Assembly: GCF_003334385.1 (NCBI RefSeq)
Contig: NZ_QOWN01000014.1
DNA length: 64,000 nt
Source: Escherichia coli
GTDB lineage: Bacteria; Pseudomonadota; Gammaproteobacteria; Enterobacterales; Enterobacteriaceae
Reading direction: 5' to 3' (one strand)
In this document: positions 34,747 through 36,211 of the stretch, in pieces
Layout: each line of letters begins with the position of its first letter
Position numbering within the stretch: position 1 is the first letter of the stretch
Position numbers and translations under genes: made by a program
The notes under the pieces: model-generated
Databases searched by the model: none
The model's input: only the letters and a program-made list of their open reading frames with translations
What the model was told of the DNA's origin: nothing

Positions 34747-36211
34747 ATGAATACCCAGTATAATTCCAGTTATATATTTTCGATTACCTTAGTCGCTACA
34801 TTAGGTGGTTTATTATTTGGCTACGACACCGCCGTTATTTCCGGTACTGTTGAGTCACTCAATACCGTCTTTGTTGCTCCACAAAACTTAAGTGAATCCG
34901 CTGCCAACTCCCTGTTAGGGTTTTGCGTGGCCAGCGCTCTGATTGGTTGCATCATCGGCGGTGCCCTCGGTGGTTATTGCAGTAACCGCTTCGGTCGTCG
35001 TGATTCACTTAAGATTGCTGCTGTCCTGTTTTTTATTTCTGGTGTAGGTTCTGCCTGGCCAGAACTTGGTTTTACCTCTATAAACCCGGACAACACAGTG
35101 CCTGTTTATCTGGCAGGTTATGTCCCGGAATTTGTTATTTATCGCATTATTGGCGGTATTGGCGTTGGTTTAGCCTCAATGCTCTCGCCAATGTATATTG
35201 CGGAACTGGCTCCAGCTCATATTCGCGGGAAACTGGTCTCTTTTAACCAGTTTGCGATTATTTTCGGGCAACTTTTAGTTTACTGCGTAAACTATTTTAT
35301 TGCCCGTTCCGGTGATGCCAGCTGGCTGAATACTGACGGCTGGCGTTATATGTTTGCCTCGGAATGTATCCCTGCACTGCTGTTCTTAATGCTGCTGTAT
35401 ACCGTGCCAGAAAGTCCTCGCTGGCTGATGTCGCGCGGCAAGCAAGAACAGGCGGAAGGTATCCTGCGCAAAATTATGGGCAACACGCTTGCAACTCAGG
35501 CAGTACAGGAAATTAAACACTCCCTGGATCATGGCCGCAAAACCGGTGGTCGTCTGCTGATGTTTGGCGTGGGCGTGATTGTAATCGGCGTAATGCTCTC
35601 CATCTTCCAGCAATTTGTCGGCATCAATGTGGTGCTGTACTACGCGCCGGAAGTGTTCAAAACGCTGGGGGCCAGCACGGATATCGCGCTGTTGCAGACC
35701 ATTATTGTCGGAGTTATCAACCTCACCTTCACCGTTCTGGCAATTATGACGGTGGATAAATTTGGTCGTAAGCCACTGCAAATTATCGGCGCACTCGGAA
35801 TGGCAATCGGTATGTTTAGCCTCGGTACCGCGTTTTACACTCAGGCACCGGGTATTGTGGCGCTACTGTCGATGCTGTTCTATGTTGCCGCCTTTGCCAT
35901 GTCCTGGGGTCCGGTATGCTGGGTACTGCTGTCGGAAATCTTCCCGAATGCTATCGCTGGCAATCGCGGTGGCGGCCCAGTGGCTGGCGAACTACTTCGT
36001 CTCCTGGACCTTCCCGATGATGGACAAAAACTCCTGGCTGGTGGCCCATTTCCACAACGGTTTCTCCTACTGGATTTACGGTTGTATGGGCGTTCTGGCA
36101 GCACTGTTTATGTGGAAATTTGTCCCGGAAACCAAAGGTAAAACCCTTGAGGAGCTGGAAGCGCTCTGGGAACCGGAAACGAAGAAAACACAACAAACTG
36201 CTACGCTGTAA
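34747..36211 (+). pseudogene. xylE: D-xylose:H+ symporter XylE, disrupted by a frameshift (apparent 11-nt deletion after codon 403)
   Basis: Frame 0 encodes XylE residues 1-403 (to ...VCWVLLSEIFPNAI) then non-membrane-like sequence; the rest of XylE (LAIAVAAQWLANYFVSWTFPMMDKN...PETKGKTLEELEALWEPETKKTQQTATL) continues in the +1 frame to the stop at 36211. Confidence 0.85.

Follow-up and report, generated by a model that had tools for sequence, protein, structure and literature searches.

An 11-bp deletion very probably makes xylE a pseudogene in a rare Escherichia coli lineage

The window, that is, the whole 64-kb stretch of Escherichia coli DNA analysed here, is colinear with K-12 MG1655 and with two wild strains of near-identical sequence, 1409 and the near-isogenic urinary isolate KE58 (NZ_CP141075.1), and it carries a near-identical orthologue of xylE between malG and psiE (Table 1). 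The same malG-xylE-psiE locus and the same promoter-proximal sequence surround E. coli xylE (WP_001097274.1; PDB 4GBY/4GBZ/4GC0, 4JA3, 4QIQ, 6N3I), which encodes a 12-helix MFS sugar porter whose solved structures (4GBY and others) cover residues 1–491. Translation of the window places the xylE initiation codon, ATG, at 34747 and a stop codon at 36139–36141. The product of this frame comprises XylE residues 1–403 (TM1–TM10), which are identical to those of the K-12/KE58 protein, fused to a 61-residue out-of-frame tail; it reads through W392 to SEIFPNAI(403) and then continues as AGNRGGGPVAGELLRLLDL... These findings confirm the report of a first-pass annotation, made from the sequence alone, that the frame leaves the XylE sequence after residue 403.

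Table 1 Positions of features at the xylE locus and elsewhere in the window
Feature	Position	Strand	Description and basis
Frame-0 ORF of mutant xylE	34747..36141	+	464 aa + stop; translation; exact protein in Logan read assembly
Deletion junction	35954..35955	+	11 nt (TCGTGGTAAAG) gone; alignments to MG1655, 1409, and KE58; unique placement
Out-of-frame tail	35955..36141	+	Ends in …AGNRGGGPVAGELLRLLDLPDDGQKLLAGGPFPQRFLLLDLRLYGRSGSTVYVEICPGNQR and stop; not membrane-like (Kyte-Doolittle)
+1-frame remnant	35948..36211	+	XylE L408–L491 (TM11, TM12, PETKG motif, C-terminus); translation
GC-rich hairpin then T-run	36222..36249	+	Past natural xylE stop; 10-bp stem, 8 GC pairs, then ACTTTTTACT
psiE	36255-36665	-	Convergent with xylE
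DUF2713 gene	15685-16677	-	330 aa in window and KE58
ubiC	23995-24495	-	CDS; in-frame AAT duplication at 24450-24452
naRNA4, copy 1	27607-27677	-	Rfam RF02564; malM-lamB
naRNA4, copy 2	31836-31906	-	Rfam RF02564; malE-malF
naRNA4, copies 3 to 5	41496-41566, 58474-58551, 58572-58649	-	Rfam RF02564; yjbE-pgi, then two in aceK-aceA
STnc430 sRNA	41281-41430	+	Rfam match; between yjbE and pgi
Lysine riboswitch	43469-43665	+	Rfam match; upstream of lysC
espL4	54503-56689	+	Type III effector homologue, annotated so in relatives
aceK	56658-58394	-	Convergent with espL4

Alignment of the window to the K-12 MG1655 xylE reference, a check proposed by the first-pass annotation, revealed a single gap consisting of TCGTGGTAAAG, which is present in the reference and missing from the window. 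Exactly these nucleotides are also missing relative to strain 1409 and KE58. They correspond to nucleotides 1209–1219 of the xylE CDS and comprise the third base of I403, the codons of R404-G405-K406, and the first base of A407; I403 itself is kept through a silent change from ATT to ATC. The junction described earlier was placed properly, but its wild-type codon 403, given as ATC, is actually ATT. When every 11-nt deletion of the intact allele was tried exhaustively, only loss of nucleotides 1209–1219 recreated the xylE sequence of the window, a result that together with the MG1655 alignment bears out the 11-nt deletion claimed previously. Because this placement is unique, the deletion is without flanking microhomology. 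The same exhaustive test disclosed no direct repeats on either side, and slippage between direct repeats was discarded as the origin of the deletion on both counts. Apart from the missing bases, xylE of the window matches the intact 1409 allele at every nucleotide. The intact protein contains 491 amino acids and the numbering of W392, E397, R404, Q415, and W416 holds; the total length and the positions of Q415 and W416 given in the earlier annotation were correct.

The 61-residue tail is free of hydrophobic segments, with a maximum Kyte-Doolittle mean over 19 residues of 0.67 compared with 1.42 for the true C-terminus, in keeping with its earlier description as not membrane-like. The true C-terminus (LAIAVAAQWLANYF...PETKGKTLEELEALWEPETKKTQQTATL) is readable in the +1 frame, as had been proposed, where ORF 35762..36211 encodes LAIAVAAQWLANYFVSWTFPMMDKN...PETKGKTLEELEALWEPETKKTQQTATL and residues 408–491 are unchanged. 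The Sugar_tr domain of Pfam (PF00083) matches product residues 14–403, which correspond to model positions 2–383 of 452, so that the last ~69 model positions are missing. Thus, the 464-aa product does not contain a full-length Sugar_tr domain with TM11 and TM12 in a single frame, and of the sugar-porter residues, R404 is deleted and Q415 and W416 are encoded in the +1 frame only. Beyond the natural stop, the terminator-like hairpin that sits between the convergent xylE and psiE is unchanged, and the premature stop lies 70 nt ahead of the natural one. No polar effect is expected, because psiE is convergent, no gene lies downstream on the transcript, the hairpin is intact, and the two stops are only 70 nt apart.

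Published structure-function data suggest what this arrangement would mean for transport. The shift in frame after I403 would yield TM1–TM10 followed by 61 nonsense residues. The resulting protein would be devoid of R404, a residue of the cytoplasmic TM10-11 motif, and of the whole of TM11 and TM12 with the xylose contacts Q415 and W416. In XylE, xylose is coordinated by Q168, Q288/Q289/N294, W392, and Q415 and stacked by F24, Y298, W392, and W416; Q415 and W416 are xylose-binding residues of TM11 (PMC3853582). Sun et al. are cited for the variants Q415A and W416A, which possibly abrogate xylose transport, and R404A appears in the same mutant table (PMC7427733). The conformational switch is controlled by conserved charge networks on the cytoplasmic side, to which R404 belongs (PMC6175955). 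Since R404 and TM11-12 are missing, the product should be unable to act as a working symporter, and the published mutants at R404, Q415, and W416, together with the MFS fold of 12 helices, lead us to infer that xylose transport activity is lost. The alignment, the end of the Pfam match at residue 403, and the deletion test also support the first-pass view of a loss-of-function allele rather than a novel system. The locus is the known gene xylE with a private frameshift; it represents an ordinary loss-of-function polymorphism and no new system or kind of element.

A 301-nt stretch of xylE was matched in 3,637 of the 5,426 complete RefSeq E. coli genomes, and the deletion occurs in none of the 3,637. 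All of these matches fall in the 95–99% identity band, and the matches listed cover 312 bases for a query of 301, showing that the 11 nt are present. A difference from 3,637 of 3,637 complete genomes is discrete, and chance can be set aside. A 38-nt sequence across the junction was not found in the GTDB representative genomes (one per species) or in JGI metagenome contigs; across these searches, the only carrier besides the window was a contig from the Logan assemblies. Absence of the junction from the complete genomes, GTDB, and JGI indicates that the allele is private to a rare lineage. The allele appears recent because it is otherwise identical to an intact allele and because, of the 52 complete CDSs transferred from the KE58 annotation to the window, only xylE is disrupted. 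Decay of the kind seen in Shigella genomes was rejected, as the window is colinear with E. coli strains, contains no IS insertion, and has 1 of 52 genes disrupted. Between 24453 and 35953 there are zero differences between the window and KE58, and the regulatory region upstream is therefore the one that precedes an intact gene in KE58. Literature searches on xylE frameshifts or deletions returned nothing specific to the 11-nt allele, and a search on run accession ERR1948963 returned nothing.

The chorismate lyase gene ubiC carries a second small change. Close to the N-terminus of UbiC, where related strains read …RYCKE…, the in-frame AAT duplication inserts another tyrosine, and the protein is 166 aa long; neither strain 1409 nor KE58 has the duplication. 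A cluster look-up listed this exact variant on only four contigs, and seven carrying contigs were read (GCA_002190145.1, ERR4578729, and others). Like the xylE deletion, the variant seems to be a marker of this rare lineage. Over parts of the window other than xylE, the GCA_002190145.1 contig is 100% identical to the window across 20.5 kb and the ERR4578729 contig across 13.6 kb, which indicates that the lineage has been sequenced repeatedly. YjbH was considered as a lineage-specific anchor for xylE of GCA_002190145.1 and was dropped; its variant is extremely common, and the sequence labelled L007 ends at window position 34495.

On the strength of these sequence comparisons, we consider it very probable that the deletion is a real, evolutionarily recent loss of 11 bp in a rare E. 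coli lineage, which would make xylE a null allele, or pseudogene. Of the three origins offered by the first-pass annotation, a strain polymorphism stands as the best reading, whereas an assembly or sequencing error is unlikely in light of the Logan junction and the clean window. Such an error would mean that xylE is really intact and that the 11 nt were lost in base-calling, assembly, or polishing. Occurrence of the deletion in 0 complete RefSeq E. coli genomes fits this idea, but an independent assembler (Logan) working on raw reads gives the identical junction. The exact 464-aa product is present in a collection of 15 billion proteins, where it derives from the Logan assembly of run ERR1948963, and contig ERR1948963_266 (9,722 nt) aligns without gaps and at 100% identity to window positions 31841–41562, junction included. 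This contig is recorded in seven samples, which may include the source reads of the window's own assembly; a small residual doubt about the deletion persists for that reason. The deleted bases, which form neither a homopolymer nor a repeat, also argue against an error. Moreover, base-by-base alignment of the whole 64-kb window to strains 1409 and KE58 showed that indels are not scattered: relative to KE58, the window has 17 SNPs and two indels, namely the xylE deletion and the in-frame 3-nt duplication in ubiC, and the latter is confirmed in NCBI and Logan assemblies. General assembly noise was dismissed on the basis of this low indel count, and we regard an artefact as extremely unlikely. The chance that the allele was engineered or otherwise made in a laboratory, for example as a product of mutagenesis or selection, is also very small. 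A clean, short deletion without microhomology fits induced damage or editing and the allele is very rare; yet no scar, cassette, or FRT-like sequence accompanies it and its flanks are identical to those of wild isolates. In addition, the lineage, recognised by the UbiC variant and by flanks of 100% identity, appears in ERR1948963, ERR4578729, GCA_002190145.1, and NCBI TPA proteins, which belong to different accession series, and its presence under such unrelated series looks like the pattern of a circulating natural clone. A rare and recent polymorphism of a strain or lineage thus offers the best reading of where the deletion would have come from.

The remaining alternatives concern function. 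LacY and other MFS permeases can work when expressed as two fragments, and the deletion happens to place a fortuitous ATG (35948–35950) in frame with L408–L491, from which a protein of 87 aa (MLS followed by L408...L491) would be made. XylE could in principle still function as such a split permease, with TM11-12 produced separately, or through +1 ribosomal frameshifting near the junction. We assign this scheme a practically negligible probability. Direct reading of the sequence upstream of the ATG (ctgtcggaaatcttcccgaATG) showed no convincing Shine-Dalgarno sequence and nothing resembling one at a useful spacing; the N-terminal fragment would bear the 61-aa nonsense tail; and any functional product would still be without R404-G405-K406, the first of which is the conserved charge-network residue altered in R404A, a variant listed with the inactive ones. 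Slippage into the +1 frame would find neither a stop nor a rare codon at the junction to drive it: direct reading of AAT GCT ATC GCT GGC AAT CGC GGT GGC GGC CCA identified no stop, rare Arg codon, or slippery heptamer, and the frame-0 stop is located 185 nt downstream of the junction. The arrangement is not conserved, being found in 0 of the 3,637 genomes and absent from the GTDB representatives and JGI contigs, and a programmed ribosomal frameshift was rejected accordingly. Loss of XylE might instead have been adaptive and selected in a circulating clone related to KE58, for example by keeping a toxic or futile substrate from being taken up together with protons. We hold this to be very improbable, and even less likely is a split permease with altered properties initiated at ATG 35948.

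The probable loss of xylE by deletion has many counterparts. The gene is accessory, being absent between malG and psiE in ~1,800 of the 5,426 complete E. coli genomes. An IS1 annotation sits at the xylE locus in strains QML220614 and 98227, and Shigella flexneri has a partial XylE of 354 aa on record. Records with IS1 in the malG-xylE-psiE region include NZ_CP132061.1 and NZ_CP173466.1. These natural absences and decayed genes of E. coli and Shigella lead to the same outcome as expected for the window, loss of the low-affinity xylose permease. They differ in kind: the others result from whole-gene absence, IS events, and other truncations, whereas the window has a private 11-bp frameshift that breaks the frame of an otherwise intact gene. 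A 48-nt in-frame deletion of xylE is found in GCA_038076015.1 (JARHSQ010000044.1, 9146–10573), in a place where the NCBI record calls no gene. This deletion arose independently in a wild isolate and, like the one in the window, takes out a short stretch of the 3' part of xylE. It is bounded by 12-nt direct repeats, keeps the reading frame, and eliminates GKTLEELEALWEPETK (the conserved PETKG motif), whereas the deletion in the window is frameshifting and not flanked by repeats. The absences, IS1 elements, partial gene, and other deletion indicate that loss of xylE is common and tolerated, and the window adds one further example of a gene that is dispensable and repeatedly lost in E. coli and Shigella.

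Xylose uptake has a low-affinity route through XylE (Km 63–169 uM) and a high-affinity ABC route through XylFGH (PMC10989795). [quoted passage not shown] The phenotype of the deletion is expected to be mild, with xylose entering through a presumed XylFGH and other permeases, because xylE is missing from about one-third of complete genomes and XylFGH is the main uptake system; xylFGH and xylAB are situated outside the 64-kb window. Genome annotation should mark xylE here as a frameshifted pseudogene, and metabolic models of the lineage, or xylose-uptake experiments on it, should assume no XylE. The 11-bp deletion combined with the UbiC tyrosine duplication could serve as a marker of a rare clone.

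Elsewhere in the window, Rfam matches identified expected features, the enterobacterial sRNA STnc430 and a lysine riboswitch, together with five intergenic copies of the REP-derived naRNA4 family, which are ordinary E. coli REP/BIME repeats. The 3' end of espL4 overlaps that of the convergent aceK by 32 nt, and EspL4 has three amino-acid differences from KE58, the most among the genes of the window. The DUF2713 gene, intact in the window and in KE58, carries a frameshift in the annotation of strain 1409. The stretches at 14–19 kb and 3.6–5.2 kb are the parts of the window most divergent from strain 1409, which suggests that they are recombination blocks.
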